From NCBI GenBank assembly GCA_027077325.1, contig JALTGF010000019.1, positions 1-38,954 of the forward strand: a stretch of 38,954 nt of DNA, written 5' to 3'. This document shows positions 5,708 to 32,515 of the stretch, one piece after another. Made by a program: the position numbers and the translations under genes. Below the pieces are notes generated by a model. It was not told the origin of the DNA. It was given only the letters and a program-made list of their open reading frames with translations, and did not search any database. Numbering within the stretch: the stretch's first letter is position 1; each line of letters opens with the position of its first letter. The DNA comes from an archaeon. GTDB lineage: Archaea > Undinarchaeota > Undinarchaeia > Undinarchaeales > JALTGF01.

Positions 5708-6835
5708 ATGGAGTTTACAATAGGAAATGCCATAAATGACCAAATTCCGGCAGAGGTTGTTGAAAGGCAAGAAAATAAAGTTGGCCGGGCAAGGATAGTT
5801 GTTATTGGAGCAGGTGGCGCTGGCAATAATTCAATAACTAGGCTAATGAATATGGGAGGCGTAAAAGGGGCTAAATCCGTTATTGTCAATACAGATATGC
5901 AACATCTTGAAATTTCAAAAGCAGATTCAAAAATATTAATTGGATACAACATAACTGAAGGACTTGGCGCGGGGGGGTTTCCAGAAGTTGGAAAACAAGC
6001 AGCAGAGTCTAGCAGAAAAGAGCTAAGAGAAGTCCTTAAAGGGGCACACCTAGTATTTTTAACATGTGGTCTTGGCGGCGGCACGGGAACTGGTTCACTC
6101 CCAGTAATTGCAGAAATTGCAAAAAAAGAAAAAGCAATTGTTGTTGCAACCGTTACAACACCATTTGATCTTGAAAAGGCAAGATTGGCAAAAGCAGAAG
6201 AAGGCTTGCTTGAACTAAAACAAAATGCAGACACTGTTATTGTAATAGACAACAACAAACTCGTAGATTACTATCCTAATCTTCCATTAAACCAAGCATT
6301 TGCGATGGCTGATGAATTGATTGCTAGCATGATTAAGGGGATTACTGAAACAATAACAGTTCCAAGTTTGATGAACCTTGATTTTGCAGATGTTAAAACA
6401 ATTATGACACAAGGCGGCGTTGCAATGATTGGCGTTGGCGAAAGTGACACTCAAAACAAGGTGCATGAAGCCGTTGAAAATGCGTTAAAGCACCCACTTT
6501 TAGATGTTGACTATCGGGGCGCAAACGGTGCACTAATTCATATAACCGGTGGACCAGAAATGACACTTGCACAGGTAACTGAAGCAGGAGAAATAATCTC
6601 AAATTCAATGAGCCCAGATGCACAGATAATTTGGGGCGCAAGAGTAGACCCGGATATGGGTGGAAAGATTAGGGTGATGACCATAGTAACTGGGGTTCAT
6701 AGCCCAAACATAATTGGAAAAAACAACGGCCTTGGGATAAAAATGATTAAAGCACAAAGCCCAAAGCAAATGGCCAGGGGTCTAGGAGGTGGAAAACCAC
6801 AAGCGCTAAGGGAACTTTCCATAGATTACCTGTAA
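5708..6835 (+). CDS. ftsZ: cell division GTPase FtsZ
   Basis: 375 aa. GAGGAGNN loop and tubulin signature GLGGGTGTGSLPVIAEIAKK. GGGAGGT Shine-Dalgarno sequence 7 nt upstream of the ATG. Confidence 0.95.
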   Translation: MEFTIGNAINDQIPAEVVERQENKVGRARIVVIGAGGAGNNSITRLMNMGGVKGAKSVIVNTDMQHLEISKADSKILIGYNITEGLGAGGFPEVGKQAAESSRKELREVLKGAHLVFLTCGLGGGTGTGSLPVIAEIAKKEKAIVVATVTTPFDLEKARLAKAEEGLLELKQNADTVIVIDNNKLVDYYPNLPLNQAFAMADELIASMIKGITETITVPSLMNLDFADVKTIMTQGGVAMIGVGESDTQNKVHEAVENALKHPLLDVDYRGANGALIHITGGPEMTLAQVTEAGEIISNSMSPDAQIIWGARVDPDMGGKIRVMTIVTGVHSPNIIGKNNGLGIKMIKAQSPKQMARGLGGGKPQALRELSIDYL

Positions 6836-6881
6836 CGCTTATTTCTCAAAAGGGAGTTCAGCCATATTACCACCCAAACGA

Positions 6882-6925
6882 CCGGGCCCAATCCCTCAGG
6901 GCCCGGCCCTCCCCTTTTAATTTTT
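6882..6925 (+). terminator. G+C-rich hairpin plus T-tract downstream of ftsZ
   Basis: CCGGGCCC (6882-6889) pairs perfectly with GGGCCCGG (6899-6906) over a 9-nt loop, followed by CCCTCCCCTTTTAATTTTT. It sits between the convergent ftsZ and the 6975..7577 gene, so it could act in both directions. Confidence 0.45.
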
Positions 6926-6974: not shown

Positions 6975-7577
6975 TTATAAAGAGAGATTAATAGAGTGAA
7001 GCGCGGCGTTTTTAATTTTGTTCCACCACTGCTTGTGTATTTCTAAGACATTTTTATCGATGTGCTTTACAAATGCCGATTGTATGTCTTTTATTACAGA
7101 TGGCCCTATGTCAAAAAGATAACTTTCAATAGCTTGAAGAATTCTAGCATCGTAAAGATCTTGACGTCCATCAACTAATATAAATGGATAAAATATTTCA
7201 GGCTCAAGAGTGGGCAGTTCATTAGCAATGCCAAGCTCTTTTGGAGTTCTTCCCTGAACACTAATCTCAATTGGGGTATTACAGTTTTTAACTCGCTCGC
7301 CAGTAAATCCAGCACATAACTCATCAGGAAGGCCATCAACAATATCTTTAACAAATGATTCGTATTTCCTCAATGGTTTATCTCCTTTAATTCCAATCCA
7401 GACATCTATGTCTCCGGAATGCTTTGAAGGACGATTTACAGAACTCCCGACAATAATTGCATATGCAAACTCATCGCCAAGTTTTTCTTTAATACTTAAA
7501 ACAATTTTTTTAATCCTTGAAATTTCTAAAAATAACTTAGGGAACAACCCACTTTTTTTGGCAGTTTTTAGATCCAT
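6975..7577 (-). CDS. Pol-beta-superfamily nucleotidyltransferase domain protein
   Basis: 200 aa. Minimal NTase motif G-S-x(10)-D-I-D in IIVGSSVNRPSKHSGDIDVWIGI, with a helical C-terminal half. Substrate unknown. Confidence 0.55.
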   Translation of the reverse strand: MDLKTAKKSGLFPKLFLEISRIKKIVLSIKEKLGDEFAYAIIVGSSVNRPSKHSGDIDVWIGIKGDKPLRKYESFVKDIVDGLPDELCAGFTGERVKNCNTPIEISVQGRTPKELGIANELPTLEPEIFYPFILVDGRQDLYDARILQAIESYLFDIGPSVIKDIQSAFVKHIDKNVLEIHKQWWNKIKNAALHSINLSL

Positions 7578-10758: not shown

Positions 10759-11673
10759 TTAAGAATTTAGAGGTGGCAAGCTGGTAGAACCCTTTAATTC
10801 TTGCCCAAGACCAATCCCAAGAGAATAAAAAGCGCCGTCCATAGTTTTTCCGAGAATATTGCTGAGGAGATTTCCTTTCTCTTCAGTGAGAGTTACGGTT
10901 TTTCTTTTCTTTAACCCAGAAAGATTTTGAGCAAGGGCAATTGCATCATCTTCTGTTCCGAGTTGATCAACCAAACCATAATTGAGGGCATCTTTTCCCA
11001 GACAAGGTCGACCATCTGCAATTTTTTCAACGGCTTCCTTTGAGAGCCCACGATTTTGTGCAACCTCTGTAACAAATTGGTCTTGAACTTGATTAATCAT
11101 ATTTTGCAGGATTTGTTGCTCATTTTTAGTAAGCGGCCTGTAAGGGCTTCCAATATCTTTATAAGGCCCAGATTTAATTGCAGTGTAATTTAGTCCGACT
11201 TTGTTTAAGAAAACGCTCCAATCGCCAACGAGGGTGTACGCACCAATATTGCAGGTTAGTGAAAGAGGGTGGGCAACAACCTTATCAGCACTCGACGCGA
11301 TCCAATAAGCTCCAGAAGTGCCCATATCACCAATCCAAGCAACAGTAGTTTTATTAATTGACTTTACTTTTGCGGCAATTTCATCACTTGCAACCGCAGA
11401 ACCGCCAGGAGAATTTATTTCCAAGACAATTGCCTTAATAGAAGGGTCATTTTCTGCCTTGTCAAGGAGCCCAATTATGGAACTCGGCTGGACCTGGGAT
11501 GTTGGGATGATAGTATCTTGGGAACTTATTGTCCCAGAAATCCGGATAATTGCTATTTTATTAGAGATAATTTGTTGTGGATAAGACAAACTAACACCTA
11601 CAACAATAATAACAAATACAAGCAATGCAGCAAGTATTACATACAATGTTTTTTTAGGTTTTGACTTTGCCAT
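10759..11673 (-). CDS. sppA: signal peptide peptidase SppA (S49 family, short form)
   Basis: IKAIVLEINSPGGS and GDMGTSGAYWIASSADKVVAHP motifs, with an N-terminal TM anchor. ATG at 11673 (MAKSKPKK) is preferred over the TTG at 11694 used by the ORF track. Confidence 0.85.
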   Translation of the reverse strand: MAKSKPKKTLYVILAALLVFVIIVVGVSLSYPQQIISNKIAIIRISGTISSQDTIIPTSQVQPSSIIGLLDKAENDPSIKAIVLEINSPGGSAVASDEIAAKVKSINKTTVAWIGDMGTSGAYWIASSADKVVAHPLSLTCNIGAYTLVGDWSVFLNKVGLNYTAIKSGPYKDIGSPYRPLTKNEQQILQNMINQVQDQFVTEVAQNRGLSKEAVEKIADGRPCLGKDALNYGLVDQLGTEDDAIALAQNLSGLKKRKTVTLTEEKGNLLSNILGKTMDGAFYSLGIGLGQELKGSTSLPPLNS

Positions 11674-19606: not shown

Positions 19607-19788
19607 TGCGGGGGGCAGGATTTTCAGCCGCTACCGCGAATTTTAGTGGGGCTTCTGCCGAAGGCAGAACGCAAAGCTTTCAACAAGCCCCACGCTTACG
19701 CCCGCAGCAGCGGGCATTTGAACCTGCGAACCCACTAAGGGACAAGGCCCTAAACCTTGCGCCTTTGACCAGGCTTGGCAACCCCCGC
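19607..19788 (-). tRNA. tRNA-Leu(UAG) interrupted by a 96-nt T-loop intron
   Basis: Acceptor GCGGGGG/CCCCCGC plus A. Anticodon stem CAAGG/CCTTG, loop TTTAGGG. Long class-II variable arm TCCCTTAGTGGGTT. T-stem GCAGG/CCTGC closes only after 19621..19716 is removed. The 5' half matches archaeal tRNA-Leu (GCGGGGGTTGCC.AGCCTGGTCAAAGGCG). Confidence 0.85.
19621..19716 (-). other. tRNA intron, T-loop 59/60, 96 nt, highly structured
   Basis: BHB: TTCA/TGAA central helix with AAT and AAT bulges. Closing helix GCC(C)GCTGCTGC/GCGGTAGCGGC. Inner hairpin GTGGGGCTT...AAGCCCCAC extended by TCTGCC-TTC-GGCAGA. Confidence 0.7.
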
Positions 19789-19792
19789 AATA

Positions 19793-19907
19793 TGCCCCAG
19801 CCGGGATGTTCAGCCATGCTGAACGCACGAAGCGACAGCAACAGCATTTGAACCCGGGTCTCCGCCTCGAAAGGGCGGAATGATTGACCGGACTACACTA
19901 CCGGGGC
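19793..19907 (-). tRNA. tRNA-Glu(UUC) interrupted by a 40-nt T-loop intron
   Basis: Acceptor GCCCCGG/CTGGGGC (one G-U) plus A. Anticodon stem CCGCC/GGCGG, loop CTTTCGA. T-stem CCGGG/CCCGG closes only after 19807..19846 is removed. Lies 4 nt upstream of tRNA-Leu. Confidence 0.85.
19807..19846 (-). other. tRNA intron, T-loop 59/60, 40 nt
   Basis: BHB: TTCA/TGAA helix with AAT and CAT bulges. The intron also contains a competing hairpin GTTCAGC-ATG-GCTGAAC. Confidence 0.7.
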
Positions 19908-25780: not shown

Positions 25781-27022
25781 TTAATCCATATTATTGACAA
25801 TTTCTCTTGCAAACTCCGAACATTTCACTTTTGTCGCGCCTTCAATTTGCCTAGCCAAGTCATAGGTAACTTTTTTGCTTTTAATCGCACCTTCAATTCC
25901 TTTAATGATTAAATCACTAACTTCTGTCCAGCCAAGATACTGAAACATCATAGCACCAGAGAGTATCAGCGAACTTGGATTTACCTCATCCTTCCCGGCA
26001 TGCTTTGGTGCAGAACCGTGTGTTGCCTCAAAAATTGCCTTGCCATTTTCATAGTTTATATTTGCCCCCGGAGCCATTCCAAGACCGCCAACTTGAGCAG
26101 CGCAAGCATCACTTACATAGTCGCCATTTAGGTTTGGCGTTGCAATAACATCATACTCATTTGGTCTTAAAAGCAATTGCTGAAACATTGCATCTGCAAT
26201 TCTGTCTTTGATAACAATTTTGCCCTCTGCAGATGCACCATCCTTAATTTCTTTTTCAGTTACAGTTATACCAGAAAACTCATCTTTTGCAACTTCATAA
26301 CCCCATTCCCTAAAGGCACCTTCCGTATATTTCATAATATTTCCCTTGTGGACTAAGGTTACAGATTTTCGATTGTGCTTAATTGCATAATTAATCGCAG
26401 CACGGACAAGCCGCTTTGATGCGTATTCACTTATTGGCTTTATCCCAATTCCAGAATCATTTCGCACTTTTACATTCATCTCATTTTTCAGAAATTCAAT
26501 AACTTTTTTTGCTTCTGGCGTATCTTTTGCCCACTCAATTCCTGCATAAACATCTTCCGTATTTTCTCTAAAGACAACAATGTTTAGCAAGTCAGGGCGT
26601 TTCATAGGGCTTGGGACACCAGGATAATACCGGACCGGCCTAACGCAGCAGTATAAGTCAAGAACCTGCCTTAATGTGACATTCAAACTTCTATAGCCAC
26701 CGCCAACAGGCGTTGTTAATGGCCCTTTAATTGCAACTTTAAAATAGCTGATTGCATCAATTGTTTCCTGCGGCAAAGGGTCAAGGCCTTTTGCAATTGC
26801 CTCTTCACCTGCAAGGAGATCAAACCAAACAACCTTTCTTTTTCCGCCATATGCCCTCTCAACTGCTGCATTAAAGACAATCTCAGCAGCTGGGCTGATA
26901 TCAACACCAATTCCATCTCCCCGAATTCGGCAGATTATTGGATTATCTGGGGTGATTGGCTTCCCCTCTTTGAACTGAATTAGTTCGCCTTCTTCTGGCG
27001 GTTTATAAAGTTTGAATTCCAT
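25781..27022 (-). CDS. icd: isocitrate dehydrogenase (NADP-type, prokaryotic homodimeric family)
   Basis: 413 aa. [54 protein letters not shown]. Confidence 0.9.
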
Positions 27023-28952
27023 TATTATGCTTCCTCTTTGTGTAGTTTAGCAGTCCGCCCTCTAGGATTATTTCTTTCATCCTTTCACCTAGGTCAGGCT
27101 TGACTTTTATTTCAATGCCTTTTGTTTTATTCTTGATGATGAATTCAGAATCTCCTGTCTCAAAGTGCTTTCTAATGTCAGGAATTTCAATCTCATCGTC
27201 TTTATCGATTTGGTCATAGTCATTTTTATTAACAAATTCAAGCGGAACAATTCCAAAATTGATAAGATTTGCTTTGTGGATTCTGGCAAATGACTTTGCA
27301 ATAACTGCTTTAATGCCAAGATACATTGGTGCAAGAGCCGCATGCTCTCGGCTTGATCCCTGGCCATAGTTTTCCCCACCAATGATAAAGCCACCGTTGT
27401 TTTCCTTTGCCCTCTTTACAAAATCAGGGTCAACCCTTGAGAATACAAAATTACTTATTGCTGGCAAATTGCTTCTCAATGGGAGTATTTTTGAACCCGC
27501 GGGCATTATCTCATCTGTGCTTATGTCATCCCCAACCTTTATCAGAATTTTTCCAGATAAACTAACAGAAAGCGGTTCCTTTATAGGCAATGATTTTATA
27601 TTGGGGCCTCTTATGATTTTAATGTTTTCTCCATTTTCAGGAGGCCAAATAAATAAGGAGTTATCAATCTCAAATTTTTCTGGAAGCTCAACTTTTGGGT
27701 AATCACCAAGTGACCTAGGATCTGTAATCTTTCCATTAATTGCACAAGCAACTGCAGTTTCAACACTGCTTAGGTAAACTTGGTCGTCTTTTGTTCCAGA
27801 TCTTCCTTTAAAGTTTCTGTTAAAAGTTCTTACAGAAATTGCACCCGTTGGAGGGGATTGCCCCATTCCTATGCAAGGACCACAAGCACATTCAAGCATT
27901 CTCGCACCAGCTTCTAGGAAATAAACCAAGGCACCATTTTTAGTAATTTCTTCAAGCACTTGCTTAGATCCAGGGCTCACAGTCATTGAAACTTTGGGGC
28001 TAACTTTTCTCCCTTTTAGGATTTTTGCAGCAGTCATTAAGTCCTTAAATGAAGAATTCGTACAGGAGCCAACACAAACTTGTTGAACTTCCAAACCCTC
28101 AACTTCCTTCACAGGGACAACATTTCCTGGGCTTGATGGCTTGGCGATTAAGGGCTCAAGTTCACTTAAGTTGATTTCAATTATTTCAGAATATTCTGCA
28201 TCTGGATCTGCTTTTAACTCTTTCCAATCCTTAACACGACTTTCTTTTTCAAAGAATTCCTTAGTTATCTCATCTGATGGAAAAATAGAAGTTGTTGCGC
28301 CAGTTTCAGTTCCCATATTTGTTATTGTCGCCCTTTCAGGAACGCTCAAAGTTTTAACACCAGGTCCAAAGTATTCGAGGATTTTTCCACGACCCCCTTT
28401 TACACCTATTCTTCTTAAAATTTCGAGGATCACATCCTTTGCAGCAACCCAACCAGGTAATTTTCCAGTAAGTTTTACCCCAATGACTTCTGGACACTTC
28501 AAGTAAAAAAGGCCACCTCCCATTGCAACCGCAACATCTAAGCCACCAGCACCAATTGCAATCATCCCAACACCACCAGAGGTTGGAGTATGAGAATCAG
28601 AGCCAAGCAAAGTTTTTCCAGGGATTGAAAATCTTTCTAAATGCAATTGATGACAAATTCCATTCCCTGGTTTTGAGAGCACGAGTCCATACTTCGCAGC
28701 AACACTTTGGAGAAATCTGTGGTCGTCTGCATTTTCAAAACCAGTCTGCAATGTGTTGTGGTCTATGTAACTTACGGATAACTCAGTTTTTACTCTTGGG
28801 ATTCCAAGAGCTTCGAATTGGAGGTATGCCATTGTTCCAGTTGCATCCTGGGTTAAAGTTTGATCAACTTTTATTCCAATTTCAGATCCTGGCTTTAATG
28901 AGCCCTCCACAAGGTGTGATTCTAGGATTTTATATGCGAGTGTTTTTCCCAT
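27003..28952 (-). CDS. acn: aconitate hydratase (short, about 650-aa aconitase family member)
   Basis: 649 aa. Fe-S ligand regions VGSCTNSS and CGPCIGMG. Swivel domain [21 protein letters not shown]. Overlaps icd by 20 nt. Confidence 0.9.
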
Positions 28953-29081
28953 CTCTCAAGAAAACACTGTAGGTTTAGTTTATATATATTTTTGAACTTT
29001 CATTGCGAGACATATGAACTAGATAGTTCCACATATATGCATAAAAAAGTATATAAATAACAGAACTTAGAGATTAAGAGC

Positions 29082-29453
29082 ATGACAAGAGAATCGCTTT
29101 CAATACTTGGGGAGAAAGTAGAAGCAGAAGAAAACCCAAAGGAGCTTCTAAAGGAGATATTTAGGTTTATTAATTTTGAGCCTGCAAACATAGACATCTA
29201 CTTTTTATTTGTTGAAAAGAAAAGAGCACTTACAGTTAGGGAGATTTGCAATTCTCTAAAATATTCAGAAAGAACAGTTAGAAAATACTTGAAAGAACTC
29301 TTAGCGTTGGGGTATATAAAAAGAGTCAGCACAGTAAGGGAAAGACCGTGCTATGCGTATGTAGCAGTAAGCCCAAAAAAAGTCTGGCAAAAACTAGTAA
29401 ATCAAGTAAGGCAGATTAGAAAGAAAGCAAGCAAGAGAATTGCAAAAATTTAG
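29082..29453 (+). CDS. small wHTH transcriptional regulator (TrmB/ArsR-like)
   Basis: 123 aa. LTVREICNSLKYSERTVRKYLKELLALGYIKRV. Divergent from acn-icd and convergent with aclA (stop at 29453, aclA stop at 29454). Confidence 0.6.
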   Translation: MTRESLSILGEKVEAEENPKELLKEIFRFINFEPANIDIYFLFVEKKRALTVREICNSLKYSERTVRKYLKELLALGYIKRVSTVRERPCYAYVAVSPKKVWQKLVNQVRQIRKKASKRIAKI

Positions 29454-31286
29454 TTAGTCCTTTAAGTAAAGGATGTCATCCCAGGGATGCCTGTAAAGTC
29501 CTTGTCTTAACCTGTACTGGTCAAGGATGTGCCCAATCATCCCGATGCTTCTCCCGAGAACAAAGAAAGCATTTAGATACCCTTCGTTGACAATTTCATT
29601 TATTTCCTCTTTTGTAAATTTCCCACAACTTTCAAACAAGTCAAGGAACAAAACTGCAAGGCACCCATCAACGTTTAGGATTAGATTCCCTTTCTTTGCA
29701 GTAGTTATTTTTTCAACCTTTAAGGCAAAGTCCAGATACTTTGTTTTCTTGAAGTGCTTTCGTGCATATTTTTTCAAAATTTCAACTCGCTTGTCAGGGT
29801 TTTTCACGCTTTTTATTCGGTGACCGATCCCAGGGATATAGATCCCTTTTGCTTTCATATCGTCTACAAACTCTCGAGGGGTCATCCTAGAATCAACTGC
29901 ATGCTTAAAGTAGCGGGCAGCATCATTCAATGCACCGCCAAATCTTGGTCCGATTGTCAATATTCCTGAGGAAAGAGCAGCAGTAATGTCTTTTCCAGCA
30001 CGTGCTGCCACAATTGCATTGTGCGCCCCTGAAACCGCAGGCCCGTGGTCAGCAGTGATCATTATTGTCATTTCAATGAACTTTGAGGCATATTTTGGAA
30101 GTTTTTTCTTAAACCAAAGCAATGAGATTACATCACCGATAGAATATCCCTTCTTAAAGAGGTCACTCATTAGAACATTATAATAAGTTGGCTCCTCTCC
30201 GCGATCGTCTGAAATTGAGGAGACAATATTAGTTGGCTTTCTTACTAATCCCTGCGCAATTGCTTTTTTGTAATCCATTGGAACCTTTGGGATTTCCATT
30301 GGCTCTTTTACTTCCTTGATTTTTCCTTGCTTCTTTAACTTATTGTAAACCATTGCAATTTTTTCGCCAAAATCATCAAAGGAATTTGGAACAACTGCTC
30401 CGGCTTTTTTTAGTGCTTTATTTTTAGCATCTGCAGTCTCAAGTTCTGAACTGGCTTTTGCACCAGCATGCCCAAACTGGACAGAGGTCTTAAAAACTTT
30501 TGCACAAGTTCCGGTTACCCACATTACTAATGGTTTCTTTATTTTTCCAGATTTTAGGGCATCCACAATTTTGTACTCTTCAAGTCCCCCAAGCTCGCCA
30601 AGACAAACAAGCATTTTTATTTTTGGATTTGCCTCAAACCTTAGCAAATGGTCAAGCAAAGTTGAACCAGGATAAACATCCCCGCCAATTGCAATACCCT
30701 CGTAAATGCCATCAGAGTTTCTTGCAATAACATTTAGCATTTCATTTAGCATCCCGCCAGATTTTGAGACAAAACCAACAGAGCCAGGCCTGTAAAGTTT
30801 TGAACCAATTATGTTTTCAATTGTCCCTGCAGCATTTCCAATTTTAAACCTGCCCGGAGCAATGCCGCCAACTGTCGCAGGCCCAATTATCACTTTTCCA
30901 AGTTTCTTTGCTTCTGCTGCAAGAATTCGCTCTTTTCTTTCTGGAACTCCTTCCGCAATTATTGCAATTGTTCTTATGCCCTTCTTTTTAAGAGCACTCA
31001 TCGTTGTTGGAAATGCCGACCTGAAAGATGAGAAGTTAATCACAACATCTGCATTGGAATGCTTTTTCACAGCTTCATCCAAGGTTTTATACATAGGAAT
31101 CAAAATTTCCTTTTTCCCAAAAAAGGCCTTCACATATCCCGCGCGATTTGGATTTATGACACAAGCAACACTTGGTGTTTTTCTTTTGCAGACATAATCA
31201 AAGTCAAGCATTCTTTGGATTGCTTTTTTCTGATTTCCAAACACAATTGCTTGCGTTTTTTCATTAAAGAGTTCATATGTGTTCAT
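29454..31286 (-). CDS. aclA: ATP-citrate lyase, alpha (large) subunit
   Basis: 610 aa. SucD-like domain with phosphohistidine loop SVQFGHAGAKAS. Citrate-synthase-like C-terminal domain (ITADHGPAVSGAHN, IPGIGHRIKS, GLYRHPWDDI). Confidence 0.9.
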   Translation of the reverse strand: MNTYELFNEKTQAIVFGNQKKAIQRMLDFDYVCKRKTPSVACVINPNRAGYVKAFFGKKEILIPMYKTLDEAVKKHSNADVVINFSSFRSAFPTTMSALKKKGIRTIAIIAEGVPERKERILAAEAKKLGKVIIGPATVGGIAPGRFKIGNAAGTIENIIGSKLYRPGSVGFVSKSGGMLNEMLNVIARNSDGIYEGIAIGGDVYPGSTLLDHLLRFEANPKIKMLVCLGELGGLEEYKIVDALKSGKIKKPLVMWVTGTCAKVFKTSVQFGHAGAKASSELETADAKNKALKKAGAVVPNSFDDFGEKIAMVYNKLKKQGKIKEVKEPMEIPKVPMDYKKAIAQGLVRKPTNIVSSISDDRGEEPTYYNVLMSDLFKKGYSIGDVISLLWFKKKLPKYASKFIEMTIMITADHGPAVSGAHNAIVAARAGKDITAALSSGILTIGPRFGGALNDAARYFKHAVDSRMTPREFVDDMKAKGIYIPGIGHRIKSVKNPDKRVEILKKYARKHFKKTKYLDFALKVEKITTAKKGNLILNVDGCLAVLFLDLFESCGKFTKEEINEIVNEGYLNAFFVLGRSIGMIGHILDQYRLRQGLYRHPWDDILYLKD

Positions 31287-32515
31287 TTTTTCCTCAAAGC
31301 CATTGAAACAATTTTTGTCATATGTGTTTCAGGACCATAAACCTCAATTGGAACTTTTATTTCATCCCCAAGTTTTCTCATTTGAGCAAGGCCTTCTTTA
31401 TAATTTGGCCCACCGCGCCTTACATAAATTTTAACTTTAAGCTTTCTTAACTTTGGAGCAAACTCGTGAAGCGCCATGATTATTCCCTTAAATGTTTTTG
31501 CAACATCAGTAAAATTGGCAATACCACCACCAATTATGAGGATTTTTCCAGGCTTATTATCGCGAGTCATTAAATCAAGAACGGTTCTTGCATATTCATA
31601 AGTTTCCGCAGTGCTTGGGTTTCCACTGTATTCTCCATAATTTGCAAGCTCATTCCCATAACCAAGATCTGTTATAGTATCCGCATAAATGACACTTGCA
31701 CCTCCGCCGGCAACCAATGTCCAAATTTTTCCATGCGGGTTTAAGATTGTCAGCTTTAATGAGGCCCCGCTCTTTTCATCCATACCTTTTATATACTGCT
31801 CTTCCTTTGAGAAAGTTCTTCCAAATGGCACTGGAAACTCAATGTTTCCCCATTTTGACTGGTTTTCAAAAGCAGAGGTGTCATCAAGTTTTGCAACCAG
31901 GTCAAGAGGGATTATCTTTCCATTTTCAAATGCAAAAGGATTAATCTCGAGATAGGTAAATCCAAGATCCACATAAAAATTATAGAGTTTTTCAATAAAG
32001 TTAACAAGCGCTTCTTTATTTTCAATATTTGGAAGCTTAGACTTTACAAATTTTCTATTAAATTTCTCAAGTATTGGAATTCTTATTTCAATCACCTTAT
32101 TCCAATTCTCTTCAATGTTAATTCCGCCTTCCAAAGAGAAAAAGATTGAGTCATACTCTCGCGCAGATTTTATTGCAACATAGTATTCTTTTTTATGAGG
32201 CACAAAAGGTTCAATTAGGAAGTGAGTCAATTTTCCAGTAGCCTTTCCAATTTTGACTTCTTTCCCCATTTGCTGTTTTATAAATTTTTTTGCATCTTCA
32301 AAGGTTGCATTTAATAAAACAAGATTGTGCTTCCCTCTTTTTCCAAAAAGCTGGTCTGGTTTTACAACAAGTTTTTTATACCTAAGCCATTTGTGCTTTT
32401 TTGAGAGAGAATTTAGATTTGTTTTTGGAGTAACTAAGACACACTTTAAACCTAGGTGTAGGTACTTTGAAAGCAAATGCTTTGCATCATATTCACGAAT
32501 TCCTCTTTCTGCCAT
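31283..32515 (-). CDS. aclB: ATP-citrate lyase, beta (small, ATP-grasp) subunit
   Basis: 410 aa. LVVKPDQLFGKRGKHNLVLLN, FLIEPFVPHKKEYYVAI, VAGGGASVIYADT, ANYGEYSGNPS, VRRGGPNYKEGL. 4-nt ATGA overlap with aclA. Confidence 0.9.
   Translation of the reverse strand: MAERGIREYDAKHLLSKYLHLGLKCVLVTPKTNLNSLSKKHKWLRYKKLVVKPDQLFGKRGKHNLVLLNATFEDAKKFIKQQMGKEVKIGKATGKLTHFLIEPFVPHKKEYYVAIKSAREYDSIFFSLEGGINIEENWNKVIEIRIPILEKFNRKFVKSKLPNIENKEALVNFIEKLYNFYVDLGFTYLEINPFAFENGKIIPLDLVAKLDDTSAFENQSKWGNIEFPVPFGRTFSKEEQYIKGMDEKSGASLKLTILNPHGKIWTLVAGGGASVIYADTITDLGYGNELANYGEYSGNPSTAETYEYARTVLDLMTRDNKPGKILIIGGGIANFTDVAKTFKGIIMALHEFAPKLRKLKVKIYVRRGGPNYKEGLAQMRKLGDEIKVPIEVYGPETHMTKIVSMALRKK

Follow-up and report, generated by a model that had tools for sequence, protein, structure and literature searches.

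What is encoded at positions 19907 to 19607 on the minus strand of contig JALTGF010000019.1 (GCA_027077325.1), where two tRNA-like sequences stand in tandem and both are broken within the T-loop? The contig was analyzed over its whole length of 38,954 nt and is referred to below as the window. Read directly, the minus strand holds a tRNA-Glu(UUC) gene and, after a gap of 4 nt, a tRNA-Leu(UAG) gene, each carrying one insert. Judged from sequence, it is very likely that both are functional tRNA genes of an Undinarchaeales-like DPANN archaeon, spliced at a motif of the bulge-helix-bulge (BHB) type and interrupted by one intron each between nucleotides 59 and 60 (59/60). A preliminary description, made from the letters of the window, had arrived at the same reading, which is now supported by the cloverleafs of the spliced forms, by the detection thresholds of ARAGORN, by an intron-less orthologue (L003) and by the literature. 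The coordinates, the strand, the anticodons, the 4-nt spacer, the 40- and 96-nt inserts and the junction strings quoted in that description all match the sequence. The parts of the tandem are as follows.

19907-19793, minus strand: tRNA-Glu(UUC), whole gene, 40-nt insert included
19907-19847, minus strand: 5' exon of tRNA-Glu(UUC), nt 1-59 (61 nt), from reading of the sequence; the sub-threshold Rfam match begins at 19907
19852-19849, minus strand: T54-A57 (TTCA) of the Glu T-loop, forming the 5' strand of the central BHB helix (4 bp), pair probability 0.58-0.61
19846-19807, minus strand: T-loop intron of tRNA-Glu(UUC), 40 nt, between nt 59 and 60, absent from the orthologue at L003 7283-7357
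19806-19793, minus strand: 3' exon of tRNA-Glu(UUC), with T60, the 3' strand of the T-stem, the 3' strand of the acceptor stem and A73
19792-19789, minus strand: spacer TATT, 4 nt, between the Glu and Leu genes
19788-19607, minus strand: tRNA-Leu(UAG), whole gene, 96-nt insert included
19788-19717, minus strand: 5' exon of tRNA-Leu(UAG), nt 1-59 with a long variable arm (72 nt)
19716-19621, minus strand: T-loop intron of tRNA-Leu(UAG), 96 nt, between nt 59 and 60
19620-19607, minus strand: 3' exon of tRNA-Leu(UAG)
19598-19594, minus strand: run of five T (T5), 9 nt past the 3' end of the Leu gene

The insertion site at 59/60, as previously proposed, can be read directly in both genes: T54 T55 C56 A57 A58 A59 is followed by the intron and then by T60, and the same order is read in a third gene of the window, tRNA-Glu(CUC), which is described below. 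CCA is encoded in neither the Glu(UUC) nor the Leu(UAG) gene. The TATT spacer has no T-run, and the T5 run follows only after the Leu gene; therefore, the two genes are probably co-transcribed as one dicistronic precursor. The T5 run is the likely candidate for the archaeal oligo-T terminator of this unit, and similar T-runs also follow other tRNA genes.

The splicing motif and the predicted spliced products

Both inserts are flanked by a strict hBHBh' motif of 3-4-3 geometry that is built from the T-stem, a TTCA/TGAA helix and a helix within the intron. The central helix forms between the T-loop TTCA (54-57) and an intronic TGAA located, in both genes, 2 nt short of the 3' end of the intron. 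The bulge on the 5' strand reads AA^T in both genes, and that on the 3' strand reads CA^T in Glu and AA^T in Leu (the caret marks the border of exon and intron). Outer helix h is the 5-bp T-stem, which pairs exon with exon and adjoins the bulge directly. Inner helix h' (GCTGT/ATGGC in Glu and GCC.GCTGC... in Leu) is present in the minimum free energy (MFE) structure and also in the fold of the intron alone. In both introns a G-C-rich hairpin begins right after the 5' bulge and stops right before TGAA. Closer inspection of the Glu intron gives the following layout: the third base of the 5' bulge is nt 1, h' and the hairpin span nt 2-34, TGAA (19812-19809) provides the 3' strand of the central helix, and CA (19808-19807) lies in the 3' bulge. 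In the Leu intron, the central helix takes its 3' strand from TGAA at 19626-19623.

Folding of the introns alone left unpaired, in each of them, exactly the first base and the last six bases, as BHB requires, and a fold in which the central helix was enforced lies 0.3 kcal/mol above the MFE. The Leu intron is strongly structured (z = -3.25); it matches no known RNA family of Rfam at E <= 10, and reading of its sequence reveals no C box (UGAUGA). The strict motif arises in register in 0.11-0.13 % of shuffled introns (~1.2e-3 per insert), and its occurrence in the Glu and Leu genes exceeds chance. Folding of the pre-tRNAs and the shuffle test thus bear out the strict motif with a 4-bp TTCA/TGAA helix and two 3-nt bulges that had been described before. 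Furthermore, we scanned both strands of the window and of 141 fetched loci (941 kb) for the combination of T-stem, TTCRA loop, strict BHB and acceptor pairing; the scan returned the three genes of this lineage, one AT-rich false positive and nothing else. The geometry at 59/60 is that at 37/38, with a 5-bp stem, a 7-nt loop and an insert after the sixth base of the loop, and because the T-loop offers the same geometry as the anticodon loop at 37/38, 59/60 recurs as an intron site (PMC4090602).

The introns may be real and yet leave the transcript in another register or by another route, be it by cleavage at 60/61, by relaxed hBH/HBh' recognition or with the help of trans-acting guide RNAs. Indeed, a T is duplicated at both junctions, so that excision at 59/60 and at 60/61 gives the same product, the central helix is thermodynamically marginal, and an A-G mismatch in the central helix of some related tRNA-Ile introns hints at a tolerant enzyme. 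However, all three genes have the exact 3-4-3 geometry together with both flanking helices, this geometry sets each cut behind the second base of its bulge, just as in canonical introns (PMC4090602, PMC3239211), and no feature of the sequence calls for another mechanism. We hold a different register or route to be quite improbable and retain BHB splicing at 59/60.

Removal of the inserts in silico yields perfect cloverleafs of 75 nt (Glu) and 86 nt (Leu) in ARAGORN. The spliced forms keep U8, A14, G18G19, U33, G53-C61, T54-A58 and A73, and the predicted exon junctions read ...GGTTCAAA/TCCCGG... in Glu and ...GGTTCAAA/TCCTGC... in Leu. As proxies for a covariance-model score of the spliced sequences, we used the score of the intron-less orthologue (see below) and a scaling of the ARAGORN threshold. 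In the latter, the spliced forms are called up to 122 % and 116 % of the default, the genuine intron-less orthologues or relatives reach 120 % and 114 %, and the unspliced genes 104 % and 102 %.

As encoded, the genes behave very differently in tRNA finders. Rfam at its gathering threshold finds neither of them; against its tRNA model, unspliced Glu and Leu score 21.2 and 18.5 bits (threshold 29), and the sub-threshold alignments force the 3' strand of the T-stem and the acceptor stem onto intron sequence. ARAGORN had been named in the preliminary description as a means of checking the locus, and its outcome is divided: both anticodons are seen and the cloverleafs are perfect once the inserts are removed, but on the unspliced locus the boundaries are wrong (19832-19902 and 19700-19790). 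The expectation that routine annotation misses such genes therefore holds here. This sets the T-loop introns apart from the canonical intron at 37/38, since finders that allow introns only in the anticodon loop fail on the Glu and Leu genes.

Orthologues and other tRNA genes of the population

An uninterrupted orthologue of the Glu gene is found in L003 (GCA_964574035.1, 7283-7357). This intron-less tRNA-Glu(UUC) scores 53.5 bits in Rfam, is identical to the predicted spliced product at 71/75 positions, without any difference from the T-stem to A73, and lies in a gene order that is syntenic with the window (IleRS, tRNA-Ile, MFS transporter, tRNA-Glu, a gene for 111 amino acids). At the splice junction, the predicted ligation product of Glu is the uninterrupted orthologue base for base. 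A homologue search with the adjacent gene for 111 amino acids returned only that gene itself.

Intron-less tRNA-Glu(UUC) genes are also present in L008 (2319-2393) and L140 (14142-14216). The orthologous gene of L005 (GCA_046483005.1, 6782-6955) carries an intron of ~98 nt at 37/38, and that of L141 (~10800-10911) a 37-nt insert in the D-loop with a relaxed motif. The tRNA-Glu(UUC) orthologues of one order thus come in four intron states (none, 37/38, D-loop and 59/60). A T-loop intron occurs in none of the 11 genomes (0/11) that share the first 30 nt of the window's tRNA-Glu(UUC), and the 59/60 intron is therefore derived and lineage-specific. Taken jointly with the reading of the tandem as functional genes, it is very probable, as far as sequence comparison can tell, that the 59/60 introns are recent, lineage-specific acquisitions.

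Two of the related loci contain repeats close to the tRNA-Glu(UUC) gene. In L005, 25 nt are duplicated (6665-6689 and 6774-6798), namely the leader together with ~14-17 nt from the start of tRNA-Glu(UUC), with the extra copy 109 nt upstream of the gene proper. The sequence between the copies resembles the region upstream of tRNA-Glu(CUC) in the same metagenome-assembled genome (MAG; L010), which suggests recombination between two Glu loci. In L003, direct repeats of ~170-180 nt (5819-6002 and 7106-7281, 79-93 % identity) lie between tRNA-Ile and tRNA-Glu on either side of the MFS gene and contain short tandem units (TAAATGGTAGATAG...).

Two further tRNA genes of the window are interrupted as well.

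464-348, minus strand: tRNA-Glu(CUC), with 5' exon 464-404, 42-nt intron at 59/60 403-362 and 3' exon 361-348; strict BHB with TTCA/TGAA
21177-21080, minus strand: tRNA-Ile(UAU), with a strict BHB intron of 24 nt at the canonical position 37/38 (21139-21116)

The tRNA-Glu(CUC) gene is located in a GC-rich island outside the Glu-Leu locus. It scores 20.9 bits in Rfam, below the threshold, ARAGORN is blind to it, and its orthologue in L010 (6329-6403) is intron-less. The tRNA-Ile(UAU) gene, whose anticodon is genomically encoded, lies directly downstream of IleRS and has an intron of 24-105 nt at 37/38 in 8/8 related lineages examined (relatives include L003 5633-5813, L005 5377-5489, L137, L138, L140, L141 and L008). 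Since all eight lineages have a BHB intron at 37/38 in this gene, BHB splicing appears to be a standing function of the clade. ARAGORN miscalls tRNA-Ile(UAU) as tRNA-His(atg). An intron-less tRNA-Gly(UCC) in the extra 8.4 kb of the population's 83-kb contig brings the tRNA genes seen in this population to five, of which three have a T-loop intron (3/5) and one a canonical intron (1/5). The tRNA-Gly(UCC) gene has an intron at 37/38 in L010 (2827-2940) and none in the window's population (L142 15043-15114).

What the three T-loop introns have in common is limited to the ends that BHB constrains, TGC...GCTGAA, with the junction AAA/UGC...GCUGAAnn/U. Transposition of an intron, which would leave families of shared sequence, was considered and rejected: when the intron cores were aligned pairwise, z came to 0.2, 1.1 and -1.6 relative to shuffled sequences, which amounts to no similarity. 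In transposed intron families of Thermoproteales, as far as Fujishima et al. 2010 is reported in PMC4090602, introns of different tRNA genes share more sequence than BHB alone would demand.

To see how reproducible the locus is across assemblies, we compared the 38.9-kb NCBI contig (the window), the 4.5-kb contigs L001 and L002, and the 83-kb contig L145 from a different sample. Contigs from the samples SAMN12239303 and SAMN12239305 agree base for base over the Glu-Leu locus and the Glu(CUC) gene, bar one indel. This only difference in the Glu-Leu locus is 1 nt in the length of a G-run (GCGGGCG vs GCGGCG, ~19694) within the Leu intron, which measures 95 or 96 nt among the copies of the population; the motif is unaffected and the exons are invariant. 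That pattern bears on the view that the tandem consists of decaying tRNA pseudogenes, with arbitrary DNA in the T-loop and genes no longer used. Such decay would explain why the genes as encoded fail the Rfam tRNA threshold and why the copies of sister lineages are either uninterrupted or interrupted in another way. Yet the exons are 100 % conserved between the samples and the sole polymorphism is intronic, all stems and invariant bases are intact in both tRNAs, and a strict BHB in register, seen in ~0.1 % of shuffled inserts, occurs three times in one window. Moreover, DPANN genomes normally have one gene per isoacceptor, which also speaks against pseudogenes. We consider decay very improbable. 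The idea that the inserts are artefacts of assembly or binning, i.e. chimeric joins inside tRNA genes, can practically be dismissed, although the data are metagenome assemblies, because the same sequence stands on the window contig, on L001, on L002 and on L145 from a different sample, and the inserts restore precise tRNA junctions.

Against functional, BHB-spliced genes weigh the following points. The A-U-rich central helix is weak; it lies outside the strict MFE structure and has pair probabilities of 0.35-0.61. An orthologue of Leu(UAG) was not found: a pattern of D-arm and anticodon loop, run over the genome collection, gave nothing, and a shorter D-arm pattern, run over metagenomes, gave at least 120 archaeal tRNA-Leu genes with no close orthologue and no T-loop intron among the matches listed. 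The nearest intron-less tRNA-Leu(UAG) among the matches listed (metagenome locus L055) is only 76/86 identical to spliced Leu(UAG), with paired changes in stems making up most of the differences. Because no Leu orthologue was found, the Leu splice junction rests on internal evidence. EndA (tRNA_int_endo) and an RtcB-type ligase are not among the window's open reading frames (ORFs) in a Pfam search of all sizeable ORFs, and the presence and type of the splicing enzymes are presumed for this genome; the BHB intron that tRNA-Ile(UAU) keeps across 8 related lineages speaks indirectly for their presence. Finally, the rest of the genome may hold duplicates that are intact and intron-less.

Non-canonical introns are not rare in metagenomic archaeal tRNA-Leu genes with this D-arm. 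They are found at L023, L027, L028, L037, L068, L071, L092, L096 and L110, in the anticodon stem, in the variable region or before the T-stem, and among the matches listed none is at 59/60. The tRNA-Leu gene of L037 apparently has two introns.

The host is an archaeon with a G+C content of ~37 %. The neighbouring MFS transporter and IleRS have their closest homologues, 62-69 % identical, in MAGs labelled Candidatus Undinarchaeota or Undinarchaeales, with synteny kept. On this basis the host is placed as Undinarchaeales-like (DPANN), a lineage that the preliminary description had not named. According to Pfam, the proteins of the window include Elp3, an ATP-dependent DNA ligase, TrmB regulators, FtsZ, IleRS and AspRS. 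Genes for isocitrate dehydrogenase, aconitase and two subunits of ATP-citrate lyase (citrate-binding/ATP-grasp and CoA-ligase/citrate-synthase) are contiguous at 25781-32515 on the minus strand, a set of central carbon metabolism genes that is notable in a DPANN genome. Another GC-rich island (up to 65 % G+C) closely follows ftsZ on its downstream side, at 6845-6915 on the plus strand. It has nested hairpins (GGGAG...CCGGGCCC-loop-GGGCCCGG...CTCCC), is without a match in Rfam at E <= 10 and could represent a small RNA or else an element resembling a terminator.

Proposed removal and possible origin of the introns

According to our model, UUCA (54-57) of the precursor would pair with UGAA near the 3' end of the intron, so that A58-A59 and the first intron base would form one bulge, and the last two intron bases and U60 the other. 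EndA would cut after the second base of each bulge and leave a 2',3'-cyclic phosphate and a 5'-OH, as in archaeal tRNA splicing. The exons would then be joined by an RtcB-type ligase (PMC4090602, PMC3239211), which possibly, and perhaps even probably, also circularises the intron. Splicing should precede the contacts of T-loop and D-loop at the elbow and the modification of the T-loop, and CCA would be added after splicing.

By motif shape alone, any type of EndA should accept strict 3-4-3 motifs, and because the motifs of Glu and Leu are strict, no enzyme of relaxed specificity would be required. The link to such an enzyme, which the preliminary description had drawn, holds only in part: the literature associates non-canonical sites with certain types of EndA, but the strict motifs found here need none of them by shape. 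Non-canonical intron positions are associated with (alpha-beta)2 and epsilon2 EndA and, in DPANN archaea, with alpha4 EndA carrying the L3 loop (PMC3239211, PMC5829648). In any case, our reading predicts that the EndA of this Undinarchaeales-like lineage should also act on BHB motifs that lie beyond the anticodon arm.

How three introns came to lie at one site is a further question. It is conceivable, although we regard it as rather unlikely, that one Undinarchaeales population recently gained them in a burst that was specific to the site and confined to the lineage. The idea is based on the location of all three at 59/60, on their shared junction and unrelated interiors, and on the varied intron states in sister lineages. 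One candidate mechanism of such gain is reverse splicing, with loops resembling the anticodon loop as targets. More speculative is the notion that T-loop introns might be retained for disrupting the sites at tRNA 3' ends on which integrating elements rely.

Repeats at the 3' end of tRNA-Glu genes were noticed in two other loci. In L010, a sister genome, an exact direct repeat of 27 nt (6107-6133 and 6314-6340, 207 nt apart) joins the final 12 nt of tRNA-Glu(CUC) to 15 nt of trailer and resembles an att-like trace left by integration or excision at a tRNA 3' end. A Methanosarcinales contig (L012) has a similar 3'-end repeat after tRNA-Glu. The thought that the 3' end of the intron-less tRNA-Glu (23 nt) might serve as a viral attP was dropped, as it has no exact match in IMG/VR viral contigs.

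If a burst did take place, the clade would be a natural system in which gain and loss of archaeal BHB introns can be caught in the act. Four intron states of one orthologous gene within one order provide material for the question of tRNA intron gain, and three introns at an identical site combined with turnover of position in one gene are mildly interesting in this respect. A more practical consequence concerns annotation. Standard finders overlook or mis-bound three of the five tRNA genes, among them the two Glu isoacceptors seen; routinely annotated MAGs of Undinarchaeales would seem to be without essential tRNAs, and inferences on completeness and codon usage would be skewed.

Comparison with known systems

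In the searchable literature, no description of tRNA introns in Undinarchaeota was found. The layout of the T-loop intron itself has precedents in other archaea: 59/60 is accepted as a non-canonical site, with examples in Crenarchaeota, Nanoarchaeota and ARMAN-2 (PMC4090602, PMC3239211), in agreement with the earlier statement that such introns are known from a few archaeal lineages. Our findings extend strict 59/60 BHB introns to another DPANN lineage and leave the splicing mechanism as known unchanged.

With the canonical BHB intron at 37/38, the T-loop introns share the identical 3-4-3 motif, the presumed enzymology and a geometrically equivalent site. In contrast to it, a precursor with a T-loop intron could not form the elbow of T-loop and D-loop before splicing. 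Among DPANN genomes, more disruption of tRNA genes is linked to loop inserts in EndA (Kaneta et al. 2018, PMC5829648); with 4/5 tRNA genes interrupted, the window's population fits this trend.

The 59/60 introns of Thermoproteales and other Crenarchaeota, as far as Marck & Grosjean 2003 and Sugahara et al. 2008 are represented in PMC4090602, have the same site, the T-stem as outer helix and the same protein-dependent BHB logic. In that account, several tRNA genes are disrupted per genome and intron positions vary among close relatives, as in the case described here. However, the host here is a DPANN archaeon of low G+C content (~37 %) and theirs a TACK hyperthermophile, and many of the crenarchaeal motifs covered there are relaxed (hBH/HBh'), whereas all three of ours are strict hBHBh'. 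Moreover, the introns of the window have no similarity among each other that would indicate transposition.

ARMAN-2 (Micrarchaeota; Fujishima et al. 2011, PMC3239211) is also a DPANN host, with a strict hBHBh' intron at 59/60 in its tRNA-Pro(GGG). It differs from our archaeon in phylum and in the tRNAs affected, which are Glu(UUC), Glu(CUC) and Leu(UAG) in the window. The 59/60 intron of ARMAN-2 tRNA-Cys(GCA) measures 13 nt, compared to 40-96 nt in the window, and is cleaved in vitro by the epsilon2 EndA of ARMAN-2 (PMC3239211). The tRNA-Ile(UAU) of ARMAN-2, with its strict canonical intron of 25 nt, is a close parallel to the 24-nt intron at 21139-21116 of the window (PMC3239211).

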